A DNA stretch of 64,000 nucleotides from a virus (taxonomy: Duplodnaviria > Heunggongvirae > Uroviricota > Caudoviricetes): positions 53,103 to 117,102 of the IMG/VR virus record IMGVR_UViG_3300032330_001391; one strand, written 5' to 3'. The notes beneath the pieces were generated by a model, which worked only from the letters and a program-made list of their open reading frames with translations, had not been told where the DNA came from and did no database searches. Positions within the stretch are counted from its first letter, which is position 1. Each line of letters begins with the position of its first letter. Made by a program: the position numbers and the translations under genes. Positions 26,566 to 60,900 of the stretch are shown here, piece by piece.

Positions 26566-26588
26566 AACTTTTATTTTAATATTTTGAG

Positions 26589-40586: not shown

Positions 40587-40844
40587 TTATTCATTATTTG
40601 GATTGTTTAAGTATTGAATAATATAATTTATATCTTCATCCCATACTTCTCTATCTGGAAACATAGCACCATAGCCTAACCCATGTGTTATAGCTTTTCT
40701 AACTTGCTCTTCAGTGTACATAGTTTGTTTAAGCTTATAAAATTCAGCGTCAATATAAAAAGCAGCATCATCTATTGCTTCATTAATTCCTTTATATTCA
40801 TTTAAAGAATTATGTATTTGTTCTATGATTTCTTCTTTAGTCAT
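40587..40844 (-). CDS. small hypothetical protein
   Basis: 85-aa ORF. Confidence 0.35.
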   Translation of the reverse strand: MTKEEIIEQIHNSLNEYKGINEAIDDAAFYIDAEFYKLKQTMYTEEQVRKAITHGLGYGAMFPDREVWDEDINYIIQYLNNPNNE

Positions 40845-41590
40845 AATTTACCTACTTTTACTTTTTCATTTGAATTAAATATAAGATATTCTTTTGAAGT
40901 TTCCAAACAATCAATGTAATAATATCTTCCTCCTGTAGACTTACCCTTTGCATCTATACTATCTACGGCTGTGTGCCCTACCACTTGAATTACCTTTTTA
41001 CGAAGTGTTTTGTGATTAGCAAATTGTAGAGAACGTGGCCTAATCCAAATTGGACTTTGTTGTACATCATCACCATATGGATCTAATCCAGCAAACTTAA
41101 AACTCTTTGGTTTATAATACCATAAGTCGTTTAGTTGGTCACTTATAGTTTCAACACTCCATCCACCATATCCAAATACGTGATTCATAAACACACTACT
41201 AACTCCAGCATGAGTGCAAAGTATATCATCAAACTGATATGCCATTTGTAAATGGTGTCTGTTTTCGTTTACTAAATGTTCAATATTAAATCTAGCTCCT
41301 GCCTGATAACCTGAGTATTGTTGATTTCCTATTTCTGGAAAGTAATGGAAGTCGTGATTACCTATTAACATAATGACCTCTGTCTTATGTTGGTTATCTT
41401 GACCATCATTAGTAAAAGCTGTTTCTTTATACTCAATAATATCTTTAAAATTCTGCATTTGTATTACAGCAGGCATATCATAATTGTCAAAGTAGTCTCC
41501 AATAAAGATAACCTTATCTGGATTTTCTTTGGCTACTATTTGTTTCCAAATATCTCTACCATGTGTATCACCAAGTATAATCGTTTTCAT
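40841..41590 (-). CDS. metallophosphoesterase (PP-lambda/Pnkp-phosphatase-like)
   Basis: 249 aa. GDTHGR, GDYFDNYD, GNHDFHY motifs of calcineurin-like phosphatases. Confidence 0.6.
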   Translation of the reverse strand: MKTIILGDTHGRDIWKQIVAKENPDKVIFIGDYFDNYDMPAVIQMQNFKDIIEYKETAFTNDGQDNQHKTEVIMLIGNHDFHYFPEIGNQQYSGYQAGARFNIEHLVNENRHHLQMAYQFDDILCTHAGVSSVFMNHVFGYGGWSVETISDQLNDLWYYKPKSFKFAGLDPYGDDVQQSPIWIRPRSLQFANHKTLRKKVIQVVGHTAVDSIDAKGKSTGGRYYYIDCLETSKEYLIFNSNEKVKVGKL

Positions 41591-46008: not shown

Positions 46009-46893
46009 TTAAATAATTTCATATTCAATTTCGGTATTAGCAAAACCCCAACTATCATCATTTTGTGATTCTGTAAACCACTCTACCCATTCCCAAGGAT
46101 CATTATACAATTGAGGTAGTTTTTTAGCGTTATCATGAAGTGTGTCTAAATTTCCACCTTGAGGAACCATATTTTTATGAGATAAATGATATAACGGTAA
46201 ATCAAAATGTGCCTCTAAACTATATCCGTTTAATACTGATTTTTTCTGGATGTTGGTGTCTCCGAAACAAGCATACAACATTTGTTCTTCAAATCCTTTT
46301 ATTTTATGCCATACATCTCTGTGAGCTAGTTGGAAGTCCCCACAGCAGTTAATTAAACTATATTTATCATTAGGAGTTACTTGAGCAGTAATGCATCTAG
46401 GTATACTCTCAATATCCATTTTGTTTCTGAATTCTTTCCAATTTTCAAATCCTATTTTTTCTAAATTTTCATATTCTGCTTCTCTTCGTGAAATAGAATA
46501 AAAAGTATTTTTATTCGCTTTGGATACAAAACTATCTAAATATTCTTTTTTAGGAGCAATAATATCAATAACAGTACTAGTAATCCAATCAGCTGTGCAT
46601 CTACGTAATAGTATATTTTGAGCTAAAATAAAAGCGTAAGGACTAATATTTTTATTTTCTTTAGTTATTTCATTTACTACTTCTTCTGGAATTATAAAGT
46701 GTTTTATTTTCCCTGTTTTTGGAATTTGGTCTTTCAGCTTCCATAGAATGGGTCCACTATTTGCTGGTGAACCCCAATCACAGAATAATACCTCATCAAA
46801 TGTTTCAACCATTGATGATAAACATACTATTATTCTTTCATCTTCTTTATATCCATCATTGCGGCAGCCTAGTACCGCTCCTTTTGTTTCCAT
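46009..46893 (-). CDS. hypothetical protein of the glycan island (possible glycosyltransferase-like)
   Basis: 294-aa ORF. No confident motif. Confidence 0.35.
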   Translation of the reverse strand: METKGAVLGCRNDGYKEDERIIVCLSSMVETFDEVLFCDWGSPANSGPILWKLKDQIPKTGKIKHFIIPEEVVNEITKENKNISPYAFILAQNILLRRCTADWITSTVIDIIAPKKEYLDSFVSKANKNTFYSISRREAEYENLEKIGFENWKEFRNKMDIESIPRCITAQVTPNDKYSLINCCGDFQLAHRDVWHKIKGFEEQMLYACFGDTNIQKKSVLNGYSLEAHFDLPLYHLSHKNMVPQGGNLDTLHDNAKKLPQLYNDPWEWVEWFTESQNDDSWGFANTEIEYEII

Positions 46894-47684
46894 TAATTTA
46901 ATATTTCTTTTATAGATTTTTTATAATACCCAAATTTCCCTCCAGGTTTAAACTCAGCTTTCATTCTTCCCTTACCAACATAACCATCAACAAATTTTTC
47001 AACAGGATTAATTCTTATATCTATTGATACTCTAGAATCTTTTATTCTTGGTTGGTTAGTATGGATACATAATGAATCAAATAAAAATATTTTATTAGTA
47101 TCAGATTCTACTTCAAAACATAAAGAATCAGCTTTCTTGTTAAAATCTTTATCATTAATAGCTTTCTCAATAAATAATTCTTCATTATTATCAACTTCAT
47201 CTAACCATTTTTTACTAGTAGGATAATCCATAAAATAAAAACCAGAATGAGTATTATTTGTTAATGAAAACCAAACATTTATTTCTTGTGGAGGATGCCC
47301 ATAAAAACAATCACTGTGGTATCTAGGATAATGATGCTGATTTATAGCATCAGGACAATGAACTCTTATGGTTGGGCATTCTTGAAAATAAAAATCATAT
47401 CCTAATTTGTTATATAAATCCCTAAGAAATTCATTATATAATTCTAAAAATTTATTATCTACATCATAAAGAATTTTAGTAATACCATTAACACCAGAAT
47501 TAAAATCATAATCAGTTAAGGATTTATCTTTAACATATTGATGAATGTTTTCTAAATCATAAACATTATTATCAATAATATCTCTCTCTTTAAGGAGTCT
47601 TAAAGTTTCTTTTTGGAATTTAATATTCCATTCAGAATTTAAATACATATACCCATTGGGTGAAGTTTCATAAATTTTATTCAT
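46893..47684 (-). CDS. hypothetical protein (possible 2OG-Fe(II)/PhyH-like oxygenase)
   Basis: 263 aa. H.D...H-like spacing around RVHCPDAINQHHYPRYHSD. Weak. Confidence 0.3.
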   Translation of the reverse strand: MNKIYETSPNGYMYLNSEWNIKFQKETLRLLKERDIIDNNVYDLENIHQYVKDKSLTDYDFNSGVNGITKILYDVDNKFLELYNEFLRDLYNKLGYDFYFQECPTIRVHCPDAINQHHYPRYHSDCFYGHPPQEINVWFSLTNNTHSGFYFMDYPTSKKWLDEVDNNEELFIEKAINDKDFNKKADSLCFEVESDTNKIFLFDSLCIHTNQPRIKDSRVSIDIRINPVEKFVDGYVGKGRMKAEFKPGGKFGYYKKSIKEILN

Positions 47685-47687
47685 ATG

Positions 47688-48698
47688 TTATCGTTTTAAA
47701 AATTTTCGTCCTGATTTTACTTTATCTCTCCAATATTCTAATAAATCGTTCATTGTTTGTTCAAATGTATATTCTGGTTTCCATCCTGTATGATTTTGGA
47801 ATTTAGTTGTATCTGGTATTTGTAAGTCAGCATCAATCGGCCTGAGGCGTTCAGGATCAGTTACTATTTCAATATTAGATACGGTTGATTTACTTATTAA
47901 ATAATTAAGCATATCTGATACTTTACATGTGTAATTTCCTCCAATATTATAGTATTCACCAGATGTTGGGTTAATTGTTACTAACATATGATATGCTTTA
48001 ACAGCATCTCTAACGTCAGCATATGTTCTTAATGATTCAAGATTACCAACATATATTTTTGGTTCTTGTAATCCTGATTCAATCATTGCTATTTGTTTAG
48101 CAAATGTTGATTCTGAAAATACATCTCCTCTTCTAGGACCAGTATGAGTAAACATACGGGTTGTCATAATTGTCATCCCATATGCCTCAGCGTAGTATCT
48201 ACCTATTAGATCAGTTCCTACTTTTGAGATAGCATATGGTGACGCTGGATGGAATGTACATTCTTCATTTATAGGAAGTTTTTCTTTTGGTACTCTACCA
48301 AATACTTCACTTGAAGCACAAACATGAATAATAGCATTTTTATAGTTTGATCGCCTAATAACCTCCAATAGATTAGTAGTTCCTAAAATATTTGTTTGAA
48401 GTGTTTCAATTGGTGAATCAAAACTTGTTTGTGGATATGACTGTGCTGCTAAATGAAATACATAATTTGGTTTTGATTTATCTATAACTACTAATAGTGA
48501 GGCTAAATCATTTAAATCACCATATACTAATTCAATGCGATCTTTTTTATTTATTTCATCAGATAAATGTTCAATATTTTCTAATGAGTCATTCCATCTA
48601 CATAATCCATAAATTTTCCAATCAGTATTAGCTAATAAATAATCAGCTAAATGTGAACCAACCATTCCTGTAATTCCAGTAATTAATACTTTATTCAT
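47688..48698 (-). CDS. gmd: GDP-mannose 4,6-dehydratase-like (Gmd/heptose dehydratase family) extended SDR
   Basis: N-terminal Rossmann LITGITGMVGSHLADYLL, catalytic region, and overall Gmd-like layout. ORF track extends to 48770, overlapping the upstream gene. MNKVLITG is the likely start. Confidence 0.7.
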   Translation of the reverse strand: MNKVLITGITGMVGSHLADYLLANTDWKIYGLCRWNDSLENIEHLSDEINKKDRIELVYGDLNDLASLLVVIDKSKPNYVFHLAAQSYPQTSFDSPIETLQTNILGTTNLLEVIRRSNYKNAIIHVCASSEVFGRVPKEKLPINEECTFHPASPYAISKVGTDLIGRYYAEAYGMTIMTTRMFTHTGPRRGDVFSESTFAKQIAMIESGLQEPKIYVGNLESLRTYADVRDAVKAYHMLVTINPTSGEYYNIGGNYTCKVSDMLNYLISKSTVSNIEIVTDPERLRPIDADLQIPDTTKFQNHTGWKPEYTFEQTMNDLLEYWRDKVKSGRKFLKR

Positions 48699-48699
48699 T

Positions 48700-49674
48700 T
48701 TATGTTGTGTATGGGGCTTTATTAATTTTAGAAATATACCAATCAATTGTTTCTTTAATACCTTCTTCAAAAGTATAAGATGGTTTAAATCCTAATTCTG
48801 TTTGAATTCTTTCTGTACTTACAGCTCTAAAAGGTATTGTTGTTGGTTTTGTTTCGTCCCAGATTACTTCTGGTGTTTCACCTGTAACTTTTAAAATTGA
48901 ATTCACAATTTCACCAATTGTAATTCCACCACCGTATCCTAAATTGTATGGCTTCATTGACTCTCCATTTTCCAATATTAATAACGCTCCTTTAACTACA
49001 TCTTTAACATATAAGAAATCTCTAACAACATCTGGACTACCCCAAACAACGAATGGATTTTCTTTACTTAAATGTCTTTTAATAAGTGCTGGAACAACAT
49101 GGCATGTTTTTAAGTCAAAATTATCATATGGTCCAAATATTGCGGTACATCGAGCTAATGCTATATGCAGTCCTGAAAATTTAGATACATGTTCCATAAG
49201 TTTTTCTCTATATCTTCTAGCCCATCCGTATCCATAATATGACTTATAAGGCTCATCAACCCAATACTCATCTTCAGTTAATGGTTTTCTAATATCAGGA
49301 TATCCAGTAGAACTGTTTAAATCAAGAAACTTTTTAACACCTGTTTTAGCACATGCTTCTAATACATTACCTATTAAAGTTAATTGTTTTAATGATATTT
49401 GAATATCAGTTGGTACTGTAGATGGGTGTGCTACCTGTCCACCACAATGAATTACATATTCTGCTCCTTCAACTAATTTAATACAATCTTCTAATTTAGT
49501 TAGATCTATATTTTCATAAATTTCAATCCCATCCTTACTGACCTGTAAAGGTGAATGATGGGTATGTGTTCTTACTTTAGCTCCTCTTTTTACTAATTCA
49601 AGTAAAAAATGAGACCCAATAAAACCACTACCTCCAGTAACTACAACTGTTTTGTCTTTAAAATGATTTTCCAT
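48700..49674 (-). CDS. NAD-dependent epimerase/dehydratase (SDR; sugar 4-reductase/epimerase candidate)
   Basis: 324 aa. VVVTGGSGFIGSH Rossmann motif, YxxxK-type catalytic region. Confidence 0.65.
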   Translation of the reverse strand: MENHFKDKTVVVTGGSGFIGSHFLLELVKRGAKVRTHTHHSPLQVSKDGIEIYENIDLTKLEDCIKLVEGAEYVIHCGGQVAHPSTVPTDIQISLKQLTLIGNVLEACAKTGVKKFLDLNSSTGYPDIRKPLTEDEYWVDEPYKSYYGYGWARRYREKLMEHVSKFSGLHIALARCTAIFGPYDNFDLKTCHVVPALIKRHLSKENPFVVWGSPDVVRDFLYVKDVVKGALLILENGESMKPYNLGYGGGITIGEIVNSILKVTGETPEVIWDETKPTTIPFRAVSTERIQTELGFKPSYTFEEGIKETIDWYISKINKAPYTT

Positions 49675-49683
49675 ATTTTATTT

Positions 49684-50655
49684 TTAATGATTTATAAATG
49701 CGTTATAACGTTTATCTAAGATTTTTTTATTACTTAAAAACCACTCAGTAGTACGTTTTATACCTTCTTCTAATGATACGGATATGTTAAATCCATATGA
49801 TTTAGCTCTAGTCATATCAAATAAGCGAATTTTATCTCCAGCTGGTTTGTCAGTTAACCATTTAATTTCAAGCGGTTTACCAGCATGTTTAACTACCATT
49901 TCTACAACTTCTTTAATTGAATAGCCTTTACCAGATCCTAAATTAATAGGTTCTGTTATTTTATTTTCAACTGCAAATATCATTCCTAAAGCAACATCAT
50001 CTGCGTGAATAAAATCTCTAATAGTTGAACCATCACCCCATACTTCTAACACATTATTTTCTTGTGCTTTTCTAATTAATGATGGTACTACCATAGCATT
50101 AGCTGGATCGAAATTATCGTATGCTCCATAAACATTAGCTGGTCTTACGATTGATATATTTTTAATACCATATTGAATACCATATGCTTCTGCTTGAAGT
50201 TCACCTATCCTTTTTGCCCAACCTGCGAATCTATCATTAGGAGAAGGAAAAGTATTCCAAACTGTGTCTTCAACAAATACATCAGCAGGTGCATAAACAC
50301 CAACTGAACTAGTATATAGATACCATTTAACTTTTGCTCTGCGAGATGCTTCCATCATGTTAGTATTAAATTGAAGCATAGGTACCATAAAATCAGCAGG
50401 TTGTTCAGCACACATCTTAGGTGAACCTTTAATACCTACTAAATTAAATACATAATCCATTCCATTACAAATTTTTTCACATTGATCAAAATAACGTAAA
50501 TCAACTTTAACATAATTTACTTCATTTGGTAGATCAGATGGTTCTGTAAGATCTGCGATTGTAATTTTGGCTCCTTTTTCTAATAGGAGACTAACTAATG
50601 AGCGGCCAATCATTCCACCCCCACCAGTAACTAAAACTTTTTGATTTTCAAACAT
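49684..50655 (-). CDS. NAD-dependent epimerase/dehydratase (SDR), second copy
   Basis: 323 aa. VLVTGGGGMIGRSL Rossmann motif. Confidence 0.65.
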   Translation of the reverse strand: MFENQKVLVTGGGGMIGRSLVSLLLEKGAKITIADLTEPSDLPNEVNYVKVDLRYFDQCEKICNGMDYVFNLVGIKGSPKMCAEQPADFMVPMLQFNTNMMEASRRAKVKWYLYTSSVGVYAPADVFVEDTVWNTFPSPNDRFAGWAKRIGELQAEAYGIQYGIKNISIVRPANVYGAYDNFDPANAMVVPSLIRKAQENNVLEVWGDGSTIRDFIHADDVALGMIFAVENKITEPINLGSGKGYSIKEVVEMVVKHAGKPLEIKWLTDKPAGDKIRLFDMTRAKSYGFNISVSLEEGIKRTTEWFLSNKKILDKRYNAFINH

Positions 50656-50660
50656 ATTAT

Positions 50661-51278
50661 TTATTTATTAAAAGATACAATAGAATATCTAGGACTCAAA
50701 GCATATTCTTCTACAACACTTACAAAATGAGGAGCTCTAAATACTTTATTATTTAACAATACTACTCGATTAAATTTAGGAAATATAGGCTGACAAAATT
50801 CTTTTTCTTCATGGGATAAAACATTTAAAATTCCTCCCCAATCCCATCTCCATTCTTTATTAACATAGTAAATAAAATTAACTGAGCCCGCGTAATCATC
50901 ATTGTGTGATCGGTAGTAATTATTTTTATCTAATTTGTAACATCTAACATCAAATTCATTTATCACAAATGGAGATACTTGTTTTAATAAAGGAATAAAA
51001 TAATTATTAAAAGTATTTTTAATAAGATCTGTTGATTCTAAAGTTTTAGATCTATTAAATTTAGCTGAATAATGTTCGTTAGGGCGTGGAAGAAATTCAT
51101 TGTCCGATTTTAAAATACTATTATAATGATTTTCTCTAATTTGGTCTATAAACTCCCATTCTTTATTTTGAGAATACGCTTCATTAATCTCATTAGCTAA
51201 TTCTAAGGGTAACATATCATCTAGTAATGAAAACCCATTGCTGTTAAGTTCTTCACTTATTTTTTTATAATTTTTCAT
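50661..51278 (-). CDS. hypothetical protein (possible 2OG-Fe(II) oxygenase fold)
   Basis: 205 aa with an HND...H pattern. Weak. Confidence 0.3.
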   Translation of the reverse strand: MKNYKKISEELNSNGFSLLDDMLPLELANEINEAYSQNKEWEFIDQIRENHYNSILKSDNEFLPRPNEHYSAKFNRSKTLESTDLIKNTFNNYFIPLLKQVSPFVINEFDVRCYKLDKNNYYRSHNDDYAGSVNFIYYVNKEWRWDWGGILNVLSHEEKEFCQPIFPKFNRVVLLNNKVFRAPHFVSVVEEYALSPRYSIVSFNK

Positions 51279-51292
51279 AAGTTTAAATATAA

Positions 51293-52216
51293 TTAATTTT
51301 CTTTAATTTTCCAAATAATTACTGGGTTTCCTTCTATATAAAGAGATCCTATTTGAAGTCTTTTTTTTAGGATAATTTCTATTTTACCTTCTTTTTCTAA
51401 TTGTTCTAAATAAGATAGATATCCTTTTAAATAATTTCTTTTTTTAGTGTATAATACACATAACTGATCTACTAAATTATCTTCATCTAGAAACTCAACC
51501 ATAGGTTCAAAATTAATACATAACGCTGGTTTCTTCACTAAGAGATAATCAATAAATTCTTTATAATTTTCTCCTATTTGTTCTAAAGCATTGCATGTAA
51601 ATACAGCACTATTACCAGGAATATCTATAGTATAATCAGGGTTAAAAAAATCAAAATTATATCCTTTAATTTTACTATTAATCGCTAAGTTATTTATTTC
51701 TTTAATAATATTTTGAGAAGCTTCTGCCCAATCTAAACCTATTAAATTGATATTTTTATTAAAATTTCCAAAGCGTAATAGGTGATATGATGGGCCACAT
51801 CCAAATTCTAATAGATTATCATATTTTGTTCCAACATATTCATGCAATATAGCATCAACTAATACTACAAGTTGGTAATAATCAAAATATTTAGAATTAC
51901 CTTTTACAAAATCTTTTTTCCACCTAGCTATATTATATTTACCAAAATATTTAGGTACTAAAGTATTAATATTATTTCCACTTTTTAATAATTCTAAATT
52001 TTCATACCATCCCTTTTCCCATTTTTCCAACCGATGTTGGCCGGCTTTTTCTAAATCTAAATTAATATGGTTTATTATATCTAATATAATTTTATCTCGC
52101 TGACTTTGTTCTGGATATTCAAAACTAAGATCATAGTTTTCAATCATTTCTTTACAATGATTACTAATAGGGAATCCTACTATTTCTTCAATATCGTTTG
52201 ATGTTATTTTATTCAT
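51293..52216 (-). CDS. SAM-dependent methyltransferase candidate
   Basis: 307 aa. Motif I-like LEFGCGPSYHLL. Confidence 0.45.
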   Translation of the reverse strand: MNKITSNDIEEIVGFPISNHCKEMIENYDLSFEYPEQSQRDKIILDIINHINLDLEKAGQHRLEKWEKGWYENLELLKSGNNINTLVPKYFGKYNIARWKKDFVKGNSKYFDYYQLVVLVDAILHEYVGTKYDNLLEFGCGPSYHLLRFGNFNKNINLIGLDWAEASQNIIKEINNLAINSKIKGYNFDFFNPDYTIDIPGNSAVFTCNALEQIGENYKEFIDYLLVKKPALCINFEPMVEFLDEDNLVDQLCVLYTKKRNYLKGYLSYLEQLEKEGKIEIILKKRLQIGSLYIEGNPVIIWKIKEN

Positions 52217-52222
52217 TATTTT

Positions 52223-52708
52223 TTATTTATCTCTACTAAATAATATAGGATTATCATGTGGCCATTCAAATCCCCATTCAGGATCGTTCCATTTTATAAC
52301 AAACTGATTTTCAACATCATTGTATTGACCTTCAAAAGCTAATTTGTAATGAAAAACACATTCGTCACTTAAAACAAAATGAGCATTTCCACAGCCTGGT
52401 GGGATTAGTATTTGTTTTCTGTTTTTAGAAGATAAAATAAACCAATCCCATTGTTTATATGTAGGTGAATCAAATCGATTGTCTGCTACTATTAAATAAA
52501 ATTCTCCATACATACAATTAATTAATTTCCATGTGTTGGAATCTCCATGTAAACCACGCAGTACATTTTTTCTAGAATGAGAAAATTTATCTAAACGCCA
52601 ATTTAAATTAGGATATTTTTCATTATCCCATGTAGTGTATATGTCACCTCTGAAATCCTCAAAAGCATCTGGTGTGAAGATTTGTATATCTTTTATTTTA
52701 TTTGTCAT
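52223..52708 (-). CDS. dTDP-4-dehydrorhamnose 3,5-epimerase-like (RmlC cupin) sugar epimerase
   Basis: 161 aa. N-terminus IFTPDAFEDFRGDIYTTW and His/Tyr placements typical of RmlC-like cupins. Confidence 0.55.
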   Translation of the reverse strand: MTNKIKDIQIFTPDAFEDFRGDIYTTWDNEKYPNLNWRLDKFSHSRKNVLRGLHGDSNTWKLINCMYGEFYLIVADNRFDSPTYKQWDWFILSSKNRKQILIPPGCGNAHFVLSDECVFHYKLAFEGQYNDVENQFVIKWNDPEWGFEWPHDNPILFSRDK

Positions 52709-53237
52709 TGTAAAAATCTCCGTTTTCTATTAACAATGTTGATTTAGAATCTTCTCTCAATAGTGCCTTTTCAAACGCTGGGAATATTTCTTCTGGTTCA
52801 TTCAGTAATACTACTTCAATATGATCTCTACACATATCTGTAAATGCTTTAGTATAGTCTTGAGTATGTTGAACACCTCCATTTAATGGATTTGTTGATC
52901 CAATAGATGTCCTAATAATAACTCTAGGTTTCATCTGCCCTCTAGACATTAAATTTGCTTTATCTATGTGATTAATCATTTGATTAACAGCACAAATAAG
53001 AAAATCAAATCTAGGATAACATGTCACAGGTACAAATCCTTCAAGGGCTAAACCTAAAGACATTCCCATCTGAACATCTTCAAATACAGGAGTTTCAATT
53101 TTTCTATCATTAGGAATAGAAGATAGTGTGTTAAAAATAGCATTTCCTGAGTATGCTACTGATTGGCCTAAAAATAATACTCTTGGGTCATTGTTTAAAT
53201 ATTCCATTGACCTAATTAACTCGTCTTTATATTTCAT
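52698..53237 (-). CDS. transketolase-like, C-terminal/pyrimidine-binding subunit
   Basis: 179-aa ORF paired by ATG/stop overlap with the N-terminal subunit. Small for a true transketolase half. Confidence 0.45.
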   Translation of the reverse strand: MKYKDELIRSMEYLNNDPRVLFLGQSVAYSGNAIFNTLSSIPNDRKIETPVFEDVQMGMSLGLALEGFVPVTCYPRFDFLICAVNQMINHIDKANLMSRGQMKPRVIIRTSIGSTNPLNGGVQHTQDYTKAFTDMCRDHIEVVLLNEPEEIFPAFEKALLREDSKSTLLIENGDFYNDK

Positions 53238-53255
53238 TATTATATGTTTTAAAAT

Positions 53256-53885
53256 TTAAAATAAAATCCAACTTCCAGTTCCATGATGTGGAAATCCTCT
53301 CTCGTATGAGTAATAAATTACATCATCAGGCACAGAACGTTTTATACCGTTCCAAGTTAGATCTGTAGGTGTATTTGTACTCATATTATTATCTTCAACA
53401 ACAAATTGTAAAGGTAAATTAAAATTAGTAGCATATTTATGCACCTCATAAAACGTTCCTGTTTCAAATGTCATATCTCCAATAAAACACCATACTTTTC
53501 TTTTTGATTTTTTAAGATGTAATGCTTGTGCTGCTCCTAAAGCAATCGGAAGTATTCCGCCTACAATAGCAGATGAATAAAAATTATGTTCAGCTGAGTT
53601 AGTACTCATACTTCCTCCTGATACTATCCAATTAAATAGTTTATCTTGAGGGTATCCATGTAATAAAGCATGGTAGTGGTTTCTCCAGGATGAGAATACC
53701 CAATCTTCAGGGTGAATATATTGAAATATCTCAATTAATTGTTCTTCATTTCCTTTTGAAAGATGAATAGGAGCTTTAATACTTCCATTTTCGTATTCTT
53801 CTTTAATTTTAATTTCAAAATCTATTAGATCTTGAGGTGTTAAACTCACCTGTCTTTCTTTTTTTAAATATTTAGGTATATTCAT
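53256..53885 (-). CDS. transketolase-like, N-terminal TPP-binding subunit
   Basis: 209 aa. GDMTFETG...VVEDNNMS resembles the TPP-binding GDG-x-E...N motif. Confidence 0.5.
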   Translation of the reverse strand: MNIPKYLKKERQVSLTPQDLIDFEIKIKEEYENGSIKAPIHLSKGNEEQLIEIFQYIHPEDWVFSSWRNHYHALLHGYPQDKLFNWIVSGGSMSTNSAEHNFYSSAIVGGILPIALGAAQALHLKKSKRKVWCFIGDMTFETGTFYEVHKYATNFNLPLQFVVEDNNMSTNTPTDLTWNGIKRSVPDDVIYYSYERGFPHHGTGSWILF

Positions 53886-53982
53886 AATTTATTATTTTTA
53901 ACAATTTGTTTAAAAAATGTACTTTAGATAAATATAATTTATTTTTTTTAATTTTTCAAATTTTTCTTTAACACTATTTAGA

Positions 53983-54936
53983 TTAATTTATTGTTGTTAC
54001 TCCTGTTTTATCTATTTTAACATCTAATATACTTTCTTTATATTTCTCAATTATTTTTTCTTTTACTAATGGATTACATATTACACATACAAATCCACAT
54101 CCTCCACTACCTAATAATTTAGCACCATATGCTCCCATATTCATTACATCATCAATTATAGTTTTGATTTTACCATTTGATATATAAGGTGATATTCTTT
54201 CTTTACTTAACCAACCCTCATATACTAGTTCTCCTATACCTTTTAAATCTTCTTGTTCGAATAATTTATAAGCATTTTTAGCGGTTTCTAATATCTGGAG
54301 TCTGTTGTTGGTATCATCTTCATGTGACTTAGCAATTATATCATTATTCCGTTGTTCTTCAGTATAAATAAGAACCATTGAGTTTTGCAAAGTCTGTTCA
54401 AATTCTTCAGTAATCGGGAGTGGTTTAATATTATATGTCCCATCAGTTTTAATTTCTACAGATGAAAATCCTTTAGCAAAAGGCCATATTTGATCTTGAA
54501 TGCCCCCACTTTCTTTTAATATTTCTCTTTCAATTTTAATAGCTGTATCAATAATTTCTTTTGAATTAATATTTTCTTCTTTTAATTTCTTTATTAAATA
54601 GATCATTCCAACACAGTAAGATGAAGATCCACCTAATCCTGTTCTTGAAGGGATGTCTGAGAATGAGAATATTTCTACAGGTTTAACATCAAGAAATTTT
54701 AATGTTTCTCTAATTAACGGATTTTTTAATTTATCTATAGTGTCAACTAATTCATATTTAGAATATGTGCAAAAATACTGTTGAGGAAAAATTTTAGGCC
54801 TATATCTCATTGAGATATAACAATATTTGTCAATAGGGGTACCTATTAAAAAAGAACCATATTGTTCATAAAAACCTTTGTAATCTGTTGATCCACCGAA
54901 CAAAGATATTCGAAATGGAGATTTAATTGTAACCAT
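53983..54936 (-). CDS. GHMP-family sugar kinase (heptose-7-phosphate kinase HddA-like)
   Basis: 317 aa. N-terminal SPFRISLFGGSTDYKGFY, motif II PSRTGLGGSSS and motif III GAKLLGSGGCG. Confidence 0.6.
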   Translation of the reverse strand: MVTIKSPFRISLFGGSTDYKGFYEQYGSFLIGTPIDKYCYISMRYRPKIFPQQYFCTYSKYELVDTIDKLKNPLIRETLKFLDVKPVEIFSFSDIPSRTGLGGSSSYCVGMIYLIKKLKEENINSKEIIDTAIKIEREILKESGGIQDQIWPFAKGFSSVEIKTDGTYNIKPLPITEEFEQTLQNSMVLIYTEEQRNNDIIAKSHEDDTNNRLQILETAKNAYKLFEQEDLKGIGELVYEGWLSKERISPYISNGKIKTIIDDVMNMGAYGAKLLGSGGCGFVCVICNPLVKEKIIEKYKESILDVKIDKTGVTTIN

Positions 54937-55578
54937 TTATTTTGATTTTTTAATGTATAAAGCATTTCCGTAACCATTAAGAATATTTAAGTATTTTCTT
55001 TCAAAATTAAAAGTAGTTACATATTCATCAATTTCATTTAATAAAGCACAATCTACATAAATTTCTCTCTCATTTACTTCTGTATAGATAAAATCAAATT
55101 TTTCTAACAGATCTCCTAAACCTTTTAAGGCTAGTAACTCTGCTCCTTGAATATCCATTACTAGTAGATTAAATTTATCTTCTATATTATTTTCTTTTAA
55201 TATAGTGTTTAGTGTTTTTGTTTTTTTATTTAAATACTCTACATATTCTATATGTGGTGCTAGAATTTTATGTTCTCCTAATTCTAGCATAGATGAACTA
55301 AATGTATTATTAGTAATTTTAAAAGTAATTTCTTTTCCATCTTTATCCCCAACGCATTCGTTTATAATATTTAAATCAGGATTTAATTTTAAATTATTTT
55401 CTACTAAATAATCAATAGCTTCAACCCAGTATATGTTTTGATTATCTAAATAATCTAAGTATACTATTTGTTCTTCACATTTATGAGCACCAACATGTAA
55501 GACTCCTTTTAAATTAAGTTTAAAAAAATCAATCAATCCTTTAAGGGTTTCTCCGTAATAATTTTCAGTTATTGTCAT
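54937..55578 (-). CDS. FkbM-family methyltransferase
   Basis: 213 aa, VGAHKCEE...MDIQGAELLAL pattern of FkbM-type MTases. Confidence 0.5.
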   Translation of the reverse strand: MTITENYYGETLKGLIDFFKLNLKGVLHVGAHKCEEQIVYLDYLDNQNIYWVEAIDYLVENNLKLNPDLNIINECVGDKDGKEITFKITNNTFSSSMLELGEHKILAPHIEYVEYLNKKTKTLNTILKENNIEDKFNLLVMDIQGAELLALKGLGDLLEKFDFIYTEVNEREIYVDCALLNEIDEYVTTFNFERKYLNILNGYGNALYIKKSK

Positions 55579-55579
55579 T

Positions 55580-56467
55580 TTATATATTGTTTATTTGGAT
55601 AAATTCATTAAAAAACAATTTTAGTTTTTTATCAAATTTAATTTCTTGTTTAGCAATTTCATAATTAAAATCTATATATTGTTTTAATTCATAATATTTT
55701 TCTTCTGTTAAATTATTTATAATATGAATAAGTTCTTCTACGTTTTCAAATCTAATTATACCTCTTTCGTCATAACCATAATATGATATTTTAGGACACC
55801 CCCAATATATTGGTAATGTTTTAGTAAGAAAAGCCTCACTTATTTTTTCTGAAAAGTAGAAATCGTATTTTGTATTTTCTACACAGACATGAAACATAGA
55901 TTCTTTAAATAAGAGTTTTTTACCTTCAACTTGAGGCATAACTATTTTACCATCAATATACTCAGTATGGCTAGGTCTACCTACTCCTCCATTATTAAAA
56001 TCTTTCCAATTAAAATCATCAAGCACATAATACCATTTTTTAGGAATTGTAATTTGTTCTTCTATTTTATATATCTCTTGTCTTAATTTATGACCTTCTA
56101 CTAATTTTTTAGCTCCTGATAAAAAACTTACTTCAAACTTTTTACTTATATTTTTAAAATGGTTAATATAATCTTCATCTAAATAGTTACAACTATGATG
56201 AAATAAAATAGCATTATCACATTTTTCTAATACTTCTTCATTATATGTTAATACTCCAGTAAACAAATGATGATTTTGTAATATCCAACTATGCATTCCA
56301 AAAAATTCATTAGGCTCATGGAGCATAATAAAATTATAAGGATTAACTTGAAGTTGTTCTATATTTTGTGGAACATAATCATAAAAAAAAGTTATAGGTT
56401 TGTTTATTTGTTTTAAACCATCATATAAAGGATCAGATTCTGGTATGAAATTAGAAAATATTTTCAT
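55580..56467 (-). CDS. hypothetical protein of the glycan island
   Basis: 295-aa ORF. Confidence 0.35.
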   Translation of the reverse strand: MKIFSNFIPESDPLYDGLKQINKPITFFYDYVPQNIEQLQVNPYNFIMLHEPNEFFGMHSWILQNHHLFTGVLTYNEEVLEKCDNAILFHHSCNYLDEDYINHFKNISKKFEVSFLSGAKKLVEGHKLRQEIYKIEEQITIPKKWYYVLDDFNWKDFNNGGVGRPSHTEYIDGKIVMPQVEGKKLLFKESMFHVCVENTKYDFYFSEKISEAFLTKTLPIYWGCPKISYYGYDERGIIRFENVEELIHIINNLTEEKYYELKQYIDFNYEIAKQEIKFDKKLKLFFNEFIQINNI

Positions 56468-57348
56468 TATTTTTTAAGCATATTATTTTGTAAATGATTG
56501 ATCATTTTATTCCATCCTATTTGAAATAAATCTTGTTTTCTATTAATAGATTTTAAATACCTATCATATAATGTTCGATTAATATACTTATAATCCTCTG
56601 CTATTACAAGATTTTTTATTTTATACTGAGTAGTGTTAGGAATATATTTACAACATTCCATTATAAATGTATCTATAGGGCTGTATCCTTCTATATCTTT
56701 AGGAAATTGAATGTAGTCTAATAATTTTTTAGAATATAAAGTAAACCATGCTCCTCCCCATTTGTATGTTTCTAAGGGTTCTAAACTTAAATCCCCATAT
56801 GTGCTAATTGTATCTGTTATAGCGTCATTTTTCTTTTCATATCCATATGGCTCAGCTAAAAAATTATCGTTAACTAATACATCCCAACTGTTATCCCATA
56901 GTTTAACATATTCTGGAGTAATTACGTAGTTCGATTGTTTTTGTTTGATTTCTAAAGAAGATTCTAAGATTAAATTTAAAGTATAAGGATGAAATACAAT
57001 ATCTATATCTAACCATATCATATCATCAACATTTGGATACTTATAAATGTTATTTATACAACAATCAACACAACCTTTTACTTTATTATCTATATTAAAG
57101 GTATATTCATCACACCAATCAGCATATTTTTTAAGATTTTCAAATTTATTAGTAAAATAATCTTGCTTTAAAACTGAATTATTCCAATCTGTAAGATAAT
57201 CTGATATAGGAAGTGTTACATCTAGTATAACATAAAATTTATCTTTATCAATATAAGCTGATGCTTGTTTGAGTAATAATAAAGTTCGTTCTAGGTAATC
57301 TATTTCATTTACCATAGGAAATATTTGTATGGCTACTTTATGTTTCAT
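56467..57348 (-). CDS. hypothetical protein of the glycan island (glycosyltransferase-like)
   Basis: 293-aa ORF. Confidence 0.35.
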   Translation of the reverse strand: MKHKVAIQIFPMVNEIDYLERTLLLLKQASAYIDKDKFYVILDVTLPISDYLTDWNNSVLKQDYFTNKFENLKKYADWCDEYTFNIDNKVKGCVDCCINNIYKYPNVDDMIWLDIDIVFHPYTLNLILESSLEIKQKQSNYVITPEYVKLWDNSWDVLVNDNFLAEPYGYEKKNDAITDTISTYGDLSLEPLETYKWGGAWFTLYSKKLLDYIQFPKDIEGYSPIDTFIMECCKYIPNTTQYKIKNLVIAEDYKYINRTLYDRYLKSINRKQDLFQIGWNKMINHLQNNMLKK

Positions 57349-57983
57349 CTATTTGCTTTAGTATAAATTTCAAATTGTGATAAATCTGGATATGGTAGCT
57401 CTAAGTCAGCGTTATGTTTTTTAGTTCCATCTGTATTATAAAATTGATTCATAAGAAGTAATCCACGAGCTGCTAATTCAGGCATCATATAAAAATTCCA
57501 TCCCAACATATCAAAATGATCATCATGATATGAGCATTCATTTCTTCCACTATATCTAGCTCTTTTAAACCACTTGTAAGCATCTTCATCATCAGTTAAA
57601 ATAGCTCCCCCTTTACTTAATTTAAAGTGTTTGTAAGGACCAGTAAAAGATATACACATATGTGTCCCAGGAATATACATGTCTGCAGTAAACGACAATG
57701 CAGAATCCCAAACTCTAGTTGGTTTTAACTGGTATGCTCCTTTTAAAGTAGTTCCAATGACTGATTCAAAATTTATTTTAGCCCCAGCATGGACAATTTC
57801 ACACGGTACTGAAGGGTATGTTCTATTAGGAATAGTAATTTCTATCCCTTTAACTTTTTCATACATTAACGCTAAAAATAGACCATTTGATTGATTATCA
57901 ACGGTTACAACATACTGTGCTCCAGTATAATCTGCTAGCGCTTTTTCAAAATCTTCTGTTATTTTATATATTCCTTGTGCCAT
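57345..57983 (-). CDS. DegT/DnrJ/EryC1-like aminotransferase-fold protein, short (212 aa)
   Basis: N-terminal FEKALADYTGAQYVVTVDNQSNGLFLAL...IPNRTYPSVPCEIVHAGAKINF matches the DegT pattern, but is about 160 aa shorter than typical. Confidence 0.4.
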   Translation of the reverse strand: MAQGIYKITEDFEKALADYTGAQYVVTVDNQSNGLFLALMYEKVKGIEITIPNRTYPSVPCEIVHAGAKINFESVIGTTLKGAYQLKPTRVWDSALSFTADMYIPGTHMCISFTGPYKHFKLSKGGAILTDDEDAYKWFKRARYSGRNECSYHDDHFDMLGWNFYMMPELAARGLLLMNQFYNTDGTKKHNADLELPYPDLSQFEIYTKANR

Positions 57984-57984
57984 A

Positions 57985-58206
57985 TTATTTTTCTTTAAAA
58001 ACTTCTATACATAAAACATTATTATCATTAACCATTATCATACTGCCGTCTTCTTTAAAGAATTTAGTAAATTGACCTTGAGTTATAGATTCAGATTTAA
58101 TGTTATTAAATGTTCTTTTAACTCCTCCTTTAAAATGAATAATTTGAGTTACTGTTTTTCCTTGAAGATTTACAGTTGAGTTTAAATTTAAAAATTCTTT
58201 GCTCAT
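57985..58206 (-). CDS. small hypothetical protein
   Basis: 73-aa ORF. Confidence 0.3.
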   Translation of the reverse strand: MSKEFLNLNSTVNLQGKTVTQIIHFKGGVKRTFNNIKSESITQGQFTKFFKEDGSMIMVNDNNVLCIEVFKEK

Positions 58207-58832
58207 AATGTATTATAGTAATTATTTTGTTGTTCTTGTCTTTCAATTGTTTTTGGGTGATATAAACACCAATGTTCTTCATCTGGAAGATACGAATACG
58301 TTTTAGTACCCTCTACTCGCTCGTGAACTTTATTAATCCATTTTATATTATCGTCTTTACGGTATATTCTTGATTGATAATCAGGAAAATTAACCCATCC
58401 TTTATTATTAATATTCCAACCCCACTGTTTAATATGATCTTGAGTTATACCTTCTACTGTATTAATTCTAGGAACAATAAACATATCAACTGATGGATTT
58501 TGTTCTAATAAATTATGGATATTTAAGATCAAATATTCATGTGGATATTCATCAGCGTCAATATTAAAGATATAATCTCCTGTACAAAGTCTTGTTAGTG
58601 TATTTTTCCAATCAGCAAAATGATTATCAAAAGGTTTTCCTACCCAAACAAATCCTTGTAGATGAGCAATAGACATAGATCGTAAATATTCTTCTACATC
58701 TACTGTTCCATTTTTAGTGTCATATAATACCACTATTTCATCTTGTTCTCGTTTTGAATTTAAAAGTAAAGGTAATAATCTGCTTATTTCATTAAACTCA
58801 TTACAAACGGTAATTGCGTAACTTATTTTCAT
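58203..58832 (-). CDS. family-2 glycosyltransferase
   Basis: 209 aa. ISYAITVCNE opening and DAD-like (NIDADEY) motif typical of GT2. Confidence 0.55.
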   Translation of the reverse strand: MKISYAITVCNEFNEISRLLPLLLNSKREQDEIVVLYDTKNGTVDVEEYLRSMSIAHLQGFVWVGKPFDNHFADWKNTLTRLCTGDYIFNIDADEYPHEYLILNIHNLLEQNPSVDMFIVPRINTVEGITQDHIKQWGWNINNKGWVNFPDYQSRIYRKDDNIKWINKVHERVEGTKTYSYLPDEEHWCLYHPKTIERQEQQNNYYNTL

Positions 58833-59087
58833 TTAGTAAATTTTAATTATATTTCCATCTTTATTTAAAAGACTAGCAAGTTGAAATTTTGAATCGTAAT
58901 GTTTTCTTATAGTATTTACAACATTTCCCATGCCTATAAAACTAACGTATTGGTTAAACCACATATGGAATTCTCCTAAATTAAATTTAAACAATTCATT
59001 AGTATTAAATTCTGTATAGTACTCGTAAAATATACTAATATCAAAATTACCTGTTTTAATCATCTCAATATACTGTTCTCTTTTCAT
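58833..59087 (-). CDS. small hypothetical protein
   Basis: 84-aa ORF with own promoter. Confidence 0.35.
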   Translation of the reverse strand: MKREQYIEMIKTGNFDISIFYEYYTEFNTNELFKFNLGEFHMWFNQYVSFIGMGNVVNTIRKHYDSKFQLASLLNKDGNIIKIY

Positions 59088-59091
59088 ATAC

Positions 59092-59130
59092 CGTAAATAT
59101 ACGATAAAAAATTTAGGTAGCCAAATTTTC
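59092..59130 (-). promoter_or_regulatory. conserved phage promoter inside the glycan island
   Basis: taaatatacgataaaaaatttaggtagccaaatttt, near-identical to the copy at 43728. Confidence 0.5.
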
Positions 59131-59586
59131 TTCTTGAGGGAGGATACCTACAAAACTTAAGGCTTCCATATAGTCTCTTTCTTCAAAATGCTGTATGTTA
59201 TCCATATCCATTCTGAATTTGTAGTACTCACCTGGTTTAGACTTGATTGGGTATTTTTCTTTTTCTTCTTCTAAGACAGGAACTGCTTTCACAGCCGACC
59301 ACTTCCATAAATTAGCTCCTGTACCATTTGCAAATACCATCCCTTGATCAGGAATATTAATAGATGATGGCATCCAAATTTTATTTTCATCGTCTGTATA
59401 GAATAAGTCTTTATACAGTTCAGGTAAAATTTCTTTTTGCTCTTCAAAAAATGTTTCATCTTCTTTCATGAGTGAATTTGTAGTAAATCCACATCCTAAA
59501 CAGTGGTATGATTTCACACCACTGTACGGCTCAGATTCCATACATGCGTCTGAGCCGCATCTTTTACATATTACTAAATTATCCAT
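59113..59586 (-). CDS. hypothetical protein with N-terminal zinc ribbon
   Basis: 157 aa, CKRCGS...CLGC. Confidence 0.35.
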   Translation of the reverse strand: MDNLVICKRCGSDACMESEPYSGVKSYHCLGCGFTTNSLMKEDETFFEEQKEILPELYKDLFYTDDENKIWMPSSINIPDQGMVFANGTGANLWKWSAVKAVPVLEEEKEKYPIKSKPGEYYKFRMDMDNIQHFEERDYMEALSFVGILPQEENLAT

Positions 59587-60888
59587 TTATTCTGCTTTTT
59601 TAAGTTTTGGTAACTCGATTTTTTTAAGTTGAGGTAATTTAAGTTGAACTTGTTTTGGAAACTCAGGAATGTATTGTGTAAATAAAATATCCATTTTTTC
59701 TTTCATTTTATCCCAACTAAACTCCATTTTATTTCTATATGCTTGGCGTTTACCACCATCTATATAGTTTTTATAGTTTTCAAACATATCTTTCATATAA
59801 TGGCCTACTTGACCTTGATCAACAGATAACCATTGACTTTCTTTTAATAACCACTGATTAGCAGCACTTGGATGTACATTAGTCATTTGACCGGGTAACA
59901 TAGTTACAAATTCAGGATTTAAGAAATCAGTGTGACCACTCCAATTAGTTGTGATAATTGGTTTTTTAACTAAACTGAATTCAAGTAATGGACGACCAAA
60001 ACCTTCACCTCTAGTTAAATTAACCATAGCTTTTACTTTAGGATGGTTATATAATTCATTTATTTCTGAATCTGAAAATTCACCATGTAGTAAATAAACA
60101 TTAGGTAAATCTTTTGAATTAACTGTTTTCTTAATTAGTTTAATACGCTTAAGAATTTCTTCCCTATCAACATATGATGAACTAACCATTGATGTTTTTA
60201 AAATAAGTGCTGGTTTGTTCTTTTTGTTTTTAAATATCTCATAAAACGCCTTAATTAGTAGGCCAACGTTTTTGCGGTCTTCACCGATATCGCCTTGAAT
60301 CCAGTGTCCTACGAACAGATAAGCGAAATCTTCCTTGATTGAGTCAAGATTAATATTCTTGATTTGGTTTCGCTCTATTACTTTATACACATCTAAATTA
60401 GCTCCTTCAAATAATACCTCAACAGGTTTTTGAAGCTGTATTGTTCCTTCAATTTGATTTGTTTGTTGATTACGTCTTTCAAATTTACTCTCTTCAAATA
60501 CTTTTTTAGAATGATTAGATGAAACTAAATTTAAGTTCATTCTATTAAGACCCTCAATCCAATCAGGAGCACAGATAGTAGTTTCAATACCTGCTGTTAC
60601 ACCAATATTATATTTTCCTACAGGTTGAAATTCACTTGGTATTGAAATTTGCATCCATATTTCTGGTTGTTTAGGTAATTGATTATCATGTAGTACATGC
60701 TCTACTAAAAATGACCATTCAGGGTTATCTTTACAAAATCCCCAAGGTGTACTTCCCCAACGTTGTGATAATAATTTAACGTTGTATTTATCTGTTTCAA
60801 TAACAGCTTTAATAACATCTCTCGCTCTAGCACCATATCCTGAATAGGTATCAAATGGTGATGAGATTATAAATAATGGTTTACTCAT
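59587..60888 (-). CDS. glycosyltransferase (GT-B fold, GT4-like) candidate
   Basis: 433-aa ORF. C-terminal half has E-x7-E-like GT-B features. Confidence 0.45.
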   Translation of the reverse strand: MSKPLFIISSPFDTYSGYGARARDVIKAVIETDKYNVKLLSQRWGSTPWGFCKDNPEWSFLVEHVLHDNQLPKQPEIWMQISIPSEFQPVGKYNIGVTAGIETTICAPDWIEGLNRMNLNLVSSNHSKKVFEESKFERRNQQTNQIEGTIQLQKPVEVLFEGANLDVYKVIERNQIKNINLDSIKEDFAYLFVGHWIQGDIGEDRKNVGLLIKAFYEIFKNKKNKPALILKTSMVSSSYVDREEILKRIKLIKKTVNSKDLPNVYLLHGEFSDSEINELYNHPKVKAMVNLTRGEGFGRPLLEFSLVKKPIITTNWSGHTDFLNPEFVTMLPGQMTNVHPSAANQWLLKESQWLSVDQGQVGHYMKDMFENYKNYIDGGKRQAYRNKMEFSWDKMKEKMDILFTQYIPEFPKQVQLKLPQLKKIELPKLKKAE

Positions 60889-60900
60889 ATAACTTATTTT

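Follow-up and report, generated by a model that had tools for sequence, protein, structure and literature searches.

What kind of sugar would a marine phage tailor with enzymes that recall those of the Campylobacter jejuni capsule, and what place has a thiamine pyrophosphate (TPP)-dependent enzyme among them? The question arises from nine adjoining genes at positions 47688-54936 (minus strand) of a 64,000-nucleotide stretch of viral DNA, positions 53,103 to 117,102 of IMG/VR record IMGVR_UViG_3300032330_001391. This whole 64-kb stretch, which belongs to a large tailed phage, is referred to here as the window. A preliminary description had recognised in the interval a GHMP kinase, a transketolase-like pair, an RmlC-like enzyme, two short-chain dehydrogenases/reductases (SDRs) and a dehydratase, and we found each of these genes on the minus strand where it had been placed. 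It had also proposed a guanosine diphosphate (GDP)-6-deoxy-heptose pathway rather than simple GDP-fucose synthesis; the heptose part of that proposal held, whereas the 'GDP' part could not be established. On balance, we read the interval as a phage-borne cassette tailoring a nucleoside diphosphate (NDP)-heptose, with versions in SAR11 and other marine bacteria.

The interval extends exactly from the stop codon of the dehydratase gene to the start codon of the kinase gene. Its nine genes share one direction, with gaps of -11 to +18 nt and a single exception of 97 nt, and the domain matches within it have E-values of 1e-9 to 1e-80, far past chance level. Two of the nine had remained unnamed, an S-adenosylmethionine (SAM)-dependent methyltransferase (51293-52216) and a 2-oxoglutarate (2OG)-Fe(II) oxygenase (50661-51278).

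A dehydratase, an epimerase and a kinase of heptose type

The dehydratase (47688-48701, minus strand; 337 aa) is most like the heptose 4,6-dehydratase of C. jejuni (7us5), to which it aligns end to end with 51.5% identity and 370 bits. Identity falls to 36.9% with Rmd (195 bits), 31.1% with Escherichia coli Gmd (153 bits) and 27.5% with RfbB, with scores of 167-195 bits for GDP-6-deoxy-4-hexulose reductases and of about 120-153 bits for Gmd enzymes. In a neighbour-joining tree, the check that the preliminary description had recommended, the window enzyme groups with its phage and SAR11 orthologues, the dehydratases of Bellamy and SynMITS9220M01, and 7us5, while Rmd and Gmd stand outside; against the NCBIfam gmd equivalog TIGR01472 it reaches 187 bits where the cut-off is 415. 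It has the hallmarks of an extended SDR (an N-terminal GxxGxxG, Ser/Thr-x-Glu and YxxxK), its motifs GITGMVG, CASSEVFG and SPYAISK align with those of 7us5 and E. coli Gmd, and the catalytic SSE and YAISK are present. We therefore predict, from sequence similarity, an NDP-heptose 4,6-dehydratase of the DdahA/WcbK/DmhA clade. The mechanically called open reading frame (ORF; 47688-48770) begins with a TTG 23 codons before the conserved MNKVLITG start, but translation most likely begins at the ATG at 48701 rather than at this TTG (48770). The ATG shares nucleotides with the stop codon of the SDR gene before it, which suggests translational coupling.

The RmlC-like protein (52223-52708, minus strand; 161 aa) points the same way. 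Across its entire length it matches the C. jejuni GDP-4-keto-heptose C3 and C3/C5 epimerases at 160-171 bits and 47.8% identity, about twice its score against RmlC itself (84 bits, 31.3% identity), and shares with the former the motif LRG[LI]HGD. It matches Pfam dTDP_sugar_isom at 123.7 bits and the rmlC equivalog at 99.6 bits, below the cut-off of 155.75. It is thus a putative NDP-4-keto-heptose epimerase of RmlC fold, acting on C3 and/or C5.

The kinase (53983-54936, minus strand; 317 aa) has the Pfam domains GHMP_kinases_N and GHMP_kinases_C, and HddA is the NCBIfam model that it fits best, with 118 bits where the cut-off is 600; at best it belongs distantly to that family. Its top solved relatives are the heptose-7-phosphate kinases 4n3o, 3k85 and 4usk (76-95 bits), whereas mevalonate kinase and galactokinase score no more than 42 bits in the PDB and 33-57 bits among solved and curated relatives. 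An identical protein, encoded on a metagenomic contig of 160,908 bp, has been annotated as heptose-7-phosphate kinase by JGI, and close relatives are found on contigs of 159-170 kb. The enzyme is nearest to HddA/WcbL, in line with the HddA-type kinase claimed beforehand. In SAR11, homologues with 31-35% identity have a fused HddC-like/GmhB protein in their neighbourhood. A dehydratase lying within canonical Gmd, together with a kinase lying among the galacto- and mevalonate kinases, had been named as the outcome that would speak against a heptose pathway; neither was found. Judged from these similarities and from the gene context described below, it is very probable that the cassette acts on a sugar of heptose origin, which would undergo 4,6-dehydration and epimerisation.

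Activation of the heptose and the nature of the nucleotide

The preliminary description had remarked that no nucleotidyltransferase, GmhA or GmhB was visible in the interval, and the observation extends to the whole window: Pfam and NCBIfam scans of about 50 ORFs found none of the three, tblastn with 12 reference proteins (from Bellamy, S-SM2, L006, L042, SAR11 and E. coli; E<=1) found no activation gene, and no ManB- or ManC-type gene is present. A candidate nucleotidyltransferase at 32865-33299 was discarded, with a weak match (E 0.12) and no HxGH motif; two further candidates, at 46009-46893 and 56467-57348, have motifs that would instead fit GT-A glycosyltransferases. The committing kinase and the tailoring enzymes are the phage's own, and for the remainder it must depend on the host or on parts of its roughly 161-kb genome outside the window. 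GmhB of C. jejuni is likewise encoded outside the capsule cluster (PMC10680097).

For comparison we used 25 distinct loci with a conserved gene for the smaller-than-usual TPP-binding subunit described below (mini-E1alpha), counting activation genes within 10 kb. The dehydratase occurs at about 21 of them, SDR1 at 23 and the epimerase at 19, in most cases as immediate neighbours of the TPP pair. Nineteen of the 25 also have one or more genes for heptose activation nearby, in the form of GmhA, an HddA-type or RfaE-type kinase, an RfaE-II adenylyltransferase or, in SAR11, a fused HddC-GmhB. In SAR11, the dehydratase, E1alpha, E1beta, SDR1, epimerase, an SDR and the GHMP kinase occur in varying order in Ca. 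Pelagibacter communis AAA795-P11 and in two single-cell genomes of Pelagibacteraceae. The fused protein beside the SAR11 cassette is HddC-like in its N-terminal half (72-101 bits) and GmhB in its C-terminal half (123-136 bits). GmhB is the heptose-1,7-bisphosphate phosphatase, needed only where the sugar carries a second phosphate, as in heptose.

There are two known families of heptose-7-phosphate kinase, GHMP (HddA) and PfkB (RfaE-I), and the cassettes draw on both. At L016, L018 and L029, phage contigs with a dehydratase of 77-89% identity, a 245-aa PfkB kinase of the RfaE-domain-I type replaces the GHMP kinase, and several other loci have GmhA and an adenylyltransferase of the RfaE-domain-II type (126 bits) as well. 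Either type of kinase can precede dehydratases that share 74-89% identity. Ordinarily HddA goes together with HddC, for the alpha anomer and GDP, and the two domains of HldE form the pair for the beta anomer and ADP. Since nucleotidyltransferases of both the HddC and the RfaE-II type accompany near-identical dehydratases, the nucleotide cannot be given as GDP.

The pairing itself varies at L042, where a GHMP kinase 67% identical to that of the window is combined with a CTP_transf_like transferase. On this metagenomic phage-like contig (8105-13726) the kinase is followed by the 141-aa CTP_transf_like protein, the mini-E1 pair and a DegT protein, and is preceded, a short way upstream, by genes for a cupin and a B12-binding radical SAM enzyme; the combination departs from both the HddA/HddC and the HldE-I/HldE-II pairs.

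A truncated E1-type pair among nucleotide-sugar enzymes

The two TPP subunits resemble E1alpha and E1beta but are much shorter. The alpha-like, TPP-binding (PP-domain) subunit (53256-53885, minus strand; 209 aa) matches Pfam E1_dh at 52 bits and TIGR03182 at 94.6 bits, the latter match being confined to positions 16-176 of a 315-position model, and the beta-like, Pyr-domain subunit (52698-53237, minus strand; 179 aa) matches Pfam Transket_pyr and, at 58 bits, PRK09212, there covering positions 9-177 of 327 only. Both subunits have about 55% of the length of E1, alpha being without its C-terminal half and beta without the C-terminal E1beta domain. In 2-oxoacid dehydrogenases that domain docks onto E2. 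The active site is nonetheless intact: all of 25 homologues keep the TPP/Mg motif GD(M)-x26-EDNN, together with the Glu in PVFED and the His in QHTQ. An intact active site combined with the loss of the E2-docking domain suggests a stand-alone decarboxylating carboligase. An identification as transketolase (the preliminary description had spoken of a transketolase-like pair) was rejected on domain content and scores: neither a Transketolase_N (PF00456) nor a Transketolase_C (PF02780) domain was found in the pair, DXS and transketolase models give 23-30 bits, and the NCBIfam transketolase model gives 23.5 bits against a cut-off of 488, a quarter of the score of the E1 model.

The mini-E1alpha family comprises 111 clusters at 50% identity (E<=1e-30), mostly of 195-255 aa with some alpha-beta fusions of about 400 aa. 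The beta subunit always adjoins alpha, and is fused to it in the cyanophages S-SM2 and P-TIM68, whose fusions have a heptose adenylyltransferase, a PfkB kinase and GmhA as neighbours. In almost every locus the pair lies directly beside the dehydratase, the epimerase, SDR1 or DegT. This constant company of dehydratase, epimerase and SDR1, often with an RfbH-like DegT, suggests an NDP-4-keto sugar as the acceptor. Enzymes with such a function are known: once a 4,6-dehydratase and a 3,5-epimerase have acted, the E1alpha/beta-like pairs Plm8/Plm9 and AviB1/AviB2 extend the resulting NDP-4-keto-6-deoxy sugars at C4 by two carbons taken from pyruvate (PMC4802897), and YerE carries out the same attachment in yersiniose A biosynthesis (PMC4802897; PMC10338323). 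Acetyl-branched sugars in general stem from the products of 4,6-dehydratases (PMC10338323). By analogy, the TPP pair of the window may branch the 4-keto intermediate, a role to which we give slightly less than an even chance; the favoured product would then be a 4-C-acetyl, later possibly a 4-C-(1-hydroxyethyl), 6-deoxyheptose.

The fusions of S-SM2 (L008, 8998-10206) and P-TIM68 (L009, 9049-10194) are 43-44% identical to the alpha and 37-43% identical to the beta subunit of the window, and their annotation as 'transketolase central region-containing protein' is probably misleading. In SAR11 and other marine bacteria (L011, 116-3450; L003, 12167-15611; L013) three TPP enzymes adjoin one another: the mini-E1 pair, a 553-557-aa enzyme of acetolactate-synthase type (YerE class) and a transketolase split into an N-terminal and a Pyr/C-terminal subunit. 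L003 has in addition a ketopantoate-hydroxymethyltransferase-like gene. The gene content of these three loci suggests an unusually elaborate carbon-carbon bond chemistry on sugars.

Reductases, methyltransferases and oxygenases

Between the dehydratase and the oxygenase lie two extended SDRs, the Fcl/GME-like SDR1 (49684-50655, minus strand; 323 aa) and the Fcl-like SDR2 (48700-49674, minus strand; 324 aa), which are 32% identical to each other and score 150 and 131 bits, respectively, against an Fcl cut-off of 500. SDR1 is the SDR most constantly found alongside the TPP pair. They had been described as reductases, and the fold bears this out, but neither has the canonical YxxxK. SDR1 reads F-A-G-W-A-K, with an aromatic residue five positions ahead of the Lys that is Phe or Tyr among the orthologues (Phe in half). 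SDR2 reads Y-G-W-A-R, with Arg for Lys, and keeps the equivalent of His179 of Fcl; the SDR paralogues of SAR11 have no Tyr at the catalytic position. Because both enzymes deviate from the catalytic motif, a role as simple C4-reductases is insecure.

The 307-aa protein at 51293-52216 (minus strand) had no match in Pfam, NCBIfam or PHROG. Its AlphaFold2 model, built from an alignment of 40 sequences, has a mean confidence score (pLDDT) of 90.8, and the top PDB matches found with Foldseek are all SAM-dependent small-molecule methyltransferases, among them the sugar O-methyltransferase AtmM. With an invariant EFGCGP motif and homologues within SAR11 modules, it is, as predicted from this model, a class I SAM-dependent methyltransferase. 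The 2OG-Fe(II) oxygenase (50661-51278, minus strand; 205 aa) matches Pfam 2OG-FeII_Oxy_4 and 2OG-FeII_Oxy_3 (E 1e-10), is also found in the related loci L029, L035 and L044, and is a predicted tailoring enzyme.

Just outside the interval stand a second oxygenase and a second methyltransferase. The 2OG-Fe(II) oxygenase-like protein of the 'sporadic carbohydrate cluster' type (46893-47684, minus strand; 263 aa) scores 49 bits against TIGR04324 (cut-off 150), and homologues lie downstream of the dehydratase in L029 (74% identity), L023 and L027 (63%), L036 and L044. The FkbM-family methyltransferase (54937-55578, minus strand; 213 aa) matches Pfam Methyltransf_21 and exceeds the cut-off of TIGR01444.

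Proposed pathway and alternative readings

In the pathway that we propose, host GmhA would act before the phage kinase, itself assigned by homology, and host GmhB and a nucleotidyltransferase after it, to give an NDP-heptose. Likewise by homology, the DdahA-type dehydratase would convert this into an NDP-6-deoxy-4-keto-heptose and the RmlC-like enzyme would epimerise it at C3 and/or C5. The mini-E1alpha/beta enzyme could then decarboxylate pyruvate and add the two-carbon unit to the C4 carbonyl, yielding a 4-C-acetyl branched 6-deoxyheptose of nine carbons, which SDR1, SDR2, the two methyltransferases and the 2OG oxygenases may reduce and decorate. The flanking glycosyltransferases might finally place the sugar on a glycan of the host envelope, so that the phage receptor would be altered during infection.

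The same genes could be read as a plain, unbranched 6-deoxy-heptose pathway of the C. jejuni type, with the TPP pair serving elsewhere, for instance as a minimal transketolase- or DXS-like precursor enzyme. Kinase, dehydratase, epimerase and Fcl-like SDRs alone make up the complete C. jejuni enzyme set (PMC10680097), and the pair does have its weak secondary matches to DXS and transketolase (23-30 bits). We nonetheless consider this reading unlikely, given the fourfold higher scores of the E1 models, the lack of both transketolase domains, and the interleaving of the pair with nucleotide-sugar enzymes at essentially every locus. The SAR11 clusters, moreover, already have a separate split transketolase beside the mini-E1 pair; this also tells against an extra supply of sedoheptulose-7-phosphate, which the preliminary description had offered as one role of the pair, and leaves its other suggestion, a branched sugar, as the favoured one. 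A pyruvate-using enzyme of E1 or DXS type would in any case be expected to form 1-deoxy-ketoses, which GmhA could not use. Very unlikely, in our view, is a 6-deoxyhexose pathway starting from GDP-mannose, of rhamnose, fucose or talose type and perhaps branched, with the GHMP kinase as a hexose-1-kinase. The dehydratase does belong to Pfam family GDP_Man_Dehyd, its second-best solved relatives are the Rmd enzymes 2pk3 and 6x3b, the SDRs are Fcl-like, and heptose dehydratases of the DdahA/WcbK/DmhA clade accept GDP-mannose in vitro. Yet the 370 bits of the window dehydratase to the heptose enzyme stand against 153 to Gmd, with a score below the gmd equivalog cut-off; the kinase is exchanged for RfaE-I heptose kinases in close relatives; related cassettes contain GmhA, RfaE-II and GmhB fusions, GmhB being of use only where there is a 1,7-bisphosphate; and a gene of ManB or ManC type is absent.

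Where the branched heptose would be placed is a matter of its own. The same chemistry might decorate the virion (capsid or tail proteins) or the phage DNA, and the cluster has its own glycosyltransferases, with no flippase, polymerase or lipid-carrier transferase gene seen in the window. We think this rather improbable. DNA hypermodification was rejected: the thymidylate synthase-like gene is a normal ThyA that scores above the cut-offs, not a hydroxymethylase, and nothing points to hydroxymethylated bases that could receive a sugar. The homologous SAR11 cassettes, for their part, sit in envelope-glycan clusters with genes for Wzm/Wzt-type ABC transporters, and lipopolysaccharide (LPS)-type genes of marine myophages have been read as altering the O-chain of the host and so blocking co-infection (PMC7029224). 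The host surface is in our estimate the most probable destination of the sugar, with chances that are about even.

Several observations weigh against the pathway that we propose. The scores of the enzymes fall below the curated equivalog cut-offs of HddA, gmd, rmlC and Fcl alike, and with GmhA, GmhB and a nucleotidyltransferase absent from the window the pathway is not self-sufficient. The nucleotide could be GDP or ADP, the anomer could be alpha or beta, and 'GDP' would follow from the similarity to 7us5 alone. The acceptor of the TPP enzyme is suggested by gene adjacency and by analogy with AviB1/B2 and Plm8/9, which are full-length E1 subunits where those of the window are truncated. Finally, the canonical Ser...YxxxK of Fcl-type C4-ketoreductases is absent from both SDR1 and SDR2, and if branching uses up C4, it is puzzling what two Fcl-like SDRs would do.

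Comparison with known systems

Heptose genes in phages are already known, and so is the 6-deoxy-heptose pathway in bacteria. In C. jejuni and Yersinia pseudotuberculosis the latter consists of GmhA, HddA, GmhB, HddC, a dehydratase (DdahA, WcbK or DmhA), an epimerase (DdahB or MlghB) and a C4-reductase (DdahC, MlghC or DmhB). The window shares with it an HddA-like GHMP kinase, the dehydratase motifs, the epimerase motif and Fcl-like SDRs, as well as the location of at least one activation gene outside the cluster (GmhB in C. jejuni; PMC10680097). The cassette differs in being carried by a phage, in having no GmhA, GmhB or HddC in the window and no YxxxK in its SDRs, and in including the mini-E1 pair, two methyltransferases and two 2OG oxygenases. 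Its nucleotide, too, may not be GDP, as sister cassettes have RfaE-type kinases and adenylyltransferases.

With AviB1/B2 of avilamycin and Plm8/9 of paulomycin biosynthesis the cassette has in common a two-subunit E1-type TPP enzyme beside a 4,6-dehydratase and a 3,5-epimerase, intact TPP-binding and catalytic residues and an adjoining ketoreductase-type partner; YerE is alike by function. Unlike these systems, which we compared by description, the window has subunits that consist of little more than the PP and Pyr domains, a heptose rather than a hexose or pentose is the presumed acceptor, and the carriers are marine bacteria and phages instead of the antibiotic clusters of actinomycetes.

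A third comparison is with the heptose and LPS clusters of marine myophages (the cyanophages Bellamy, SynMITS9220M01, S-SM2 and P-TIM68, and the host-recognition regions of pelagimyophages), in which activation genes, SDRs and glycosyltransferases likewise run in one direction within a hypervariable region. The dehydratases of Bellamy and SynMITS9220M01 are 54-55% identical to that of the window, and S-SM2 and P-TIM68 hold the fused TPP enzyme. By its baseplate protein, however, the window phage is of another lineage, and it has the full core of dehydratase, epimerase, TPP pair and SDRs, with neither GmhA nor a nucleotidyltransferase in the window.

We found neither in curated families nor in the searchable literature the conserved combination in which a DdahA-type dehydratase and its epimerase are joined by atypical SDRs and a minimal TPP enzyme of E1 type, nor its wide spread in marine phages and SAR11 with free exchange of kinase types. 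No prior description of a TPP enzyme with heptose, or of cyanophage heptose genes with transketolase, was found in the literature. It is quite possible, if somewhat less likely than not, that the TPP pair constitutes a new class of stand-alone carboligase. It would give a nine-carbon, C-branched heptose derivative, of a type for which we found no description, in SAR11 and many marine phages, where the sugar would serve to remodel surface glycans, and the usual alpha/GDP and beta/ADP pairings would be broken.

The wider cluster and its phage context

The co-directional cluster is wider than the nine genes and extends from about 46009 to 62334, adding at least five glycosyltransferase-like proteins, the FkbM methyltransferase, the second 2OG oxygenase and a short DegT-like protein. 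At its downstream end, a 294-aa protein (46009-46893, minus strand) has no match in Pfam, NCBIfam or PHROG but is 65% identical to the gene after the kinase in L018; from a GGFDE-like motif it is probably a glycosyltransferase of GT-A type. The upstream part (55580-62334, minus strand), annotated from Pfam and PHROG matches, contains a GT10-like protein, a GT-A-like protein of 293 aa, the short DegT-like protein (57345-57983), a GT2 glycosyltransferase (58203-58832), two GT1 glycosyltransferases (59587-60888 and 60901-62334) and two small ORFs. It is syntenic, at 53-87% identity, with the viral contig L029 and with L044, and the gene arrangement of the window itself is kept in a 167.9-kb relative.

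DegT-type aminotransferases usually measure about 370-400 aa, against 212 aa for the protein at 57345-57983, which keeps the N-terminal region and the SF..K..GG lysine motif and is without the C-terminal domain. It is no random fragment, being 87% identical in L029, which itself has a full-length RfbH-like DegT. L029 (IMGVR_UViG_3300032270_001418) is the viral contig with the closest synteny. Between its short DegT-like and its glycosyltransferase genes it has a FabH/KAS III-like enzyme and an acyltransferase with hexapeptide repeats (5030-6503), which hints at a variant with an N-acylated amino sugar.

The window has about 30% G+C and nearly all of its genes on the minus strand. Phage-type genes encode a baseplate wedge protein, an ATP-dependent DNA ligase, a thymidylate synthase, an RNA ligase and four tRNAs. 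Signals of the host diverge, the sugar genes resembling those of SAR11 and other low-GC marine bacteria and the baseplate protein being 45% identical to its counterparts in Flavobacterium phage immuto and Microcystis phage Mel-JY01. A scan for promoters and terminators gave counts not above those of shuffled sequence, and at the DNA level the 12-kb cluster had no megablast match in the phage collection; the informative searches were those with proteins.

Among the other genes, all on the minus strand, the 373-aa thymidylate synthase (35313-36434) is matched by family models in two or three stretches, which implies an insertion of about 60-90 aa relative to typical ThyA, yet scores above the curated cut-offs. 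ARAGORN identified the four tRNA genes (17127-17207, 17688-17760, 23720-23792 and 26588-26662), comprising Leu-TAG, Arg-TCT, Met-CAT and one tRNA-??? with an irregular two-base anticodon. Within 16 kb lie the ATP-dependent DNA ligase (26953-28035), two calcineurin-like metallophosphoesterases (38011-38739 and 40841-41590) and the RNA ligase (41609-42748), which may form an RNA or tRNA repair set. There are also a T5orf172/MUG113-domain protein (17963-18421), a ClpP-like protease (18441-19049) that is probably the prohead protease, an SPFH/band-7 protein (31574-32413) and an NlpC/P60 peptidase (34356-34826).

Significance for marine phages and SAR11

Surface glycans decide the attachment of phages to SAR11 and other dominant ocean bacteria, and their chemistry is almost unknown because these bacteria are hard to grow. 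The cassette supplies definite enzymes for expression and assay. Should our reading be correct, the 6-deoxy-heptose chemistry of Campylobacter would extend to marine phages and SAR11, and a minimal thiamine-dependent enzyme forming carbon-carbon bonds would join nucleotide-sugar biochemistry; the annotations 'transketolase' and 'pyruvate dehydrogenase E1' would then need correction for many metagenomic and phage genes of the mini-E1 family. The exchange of kinases and the partial pathway, in turn, show which steps a phage finds worth carrying.

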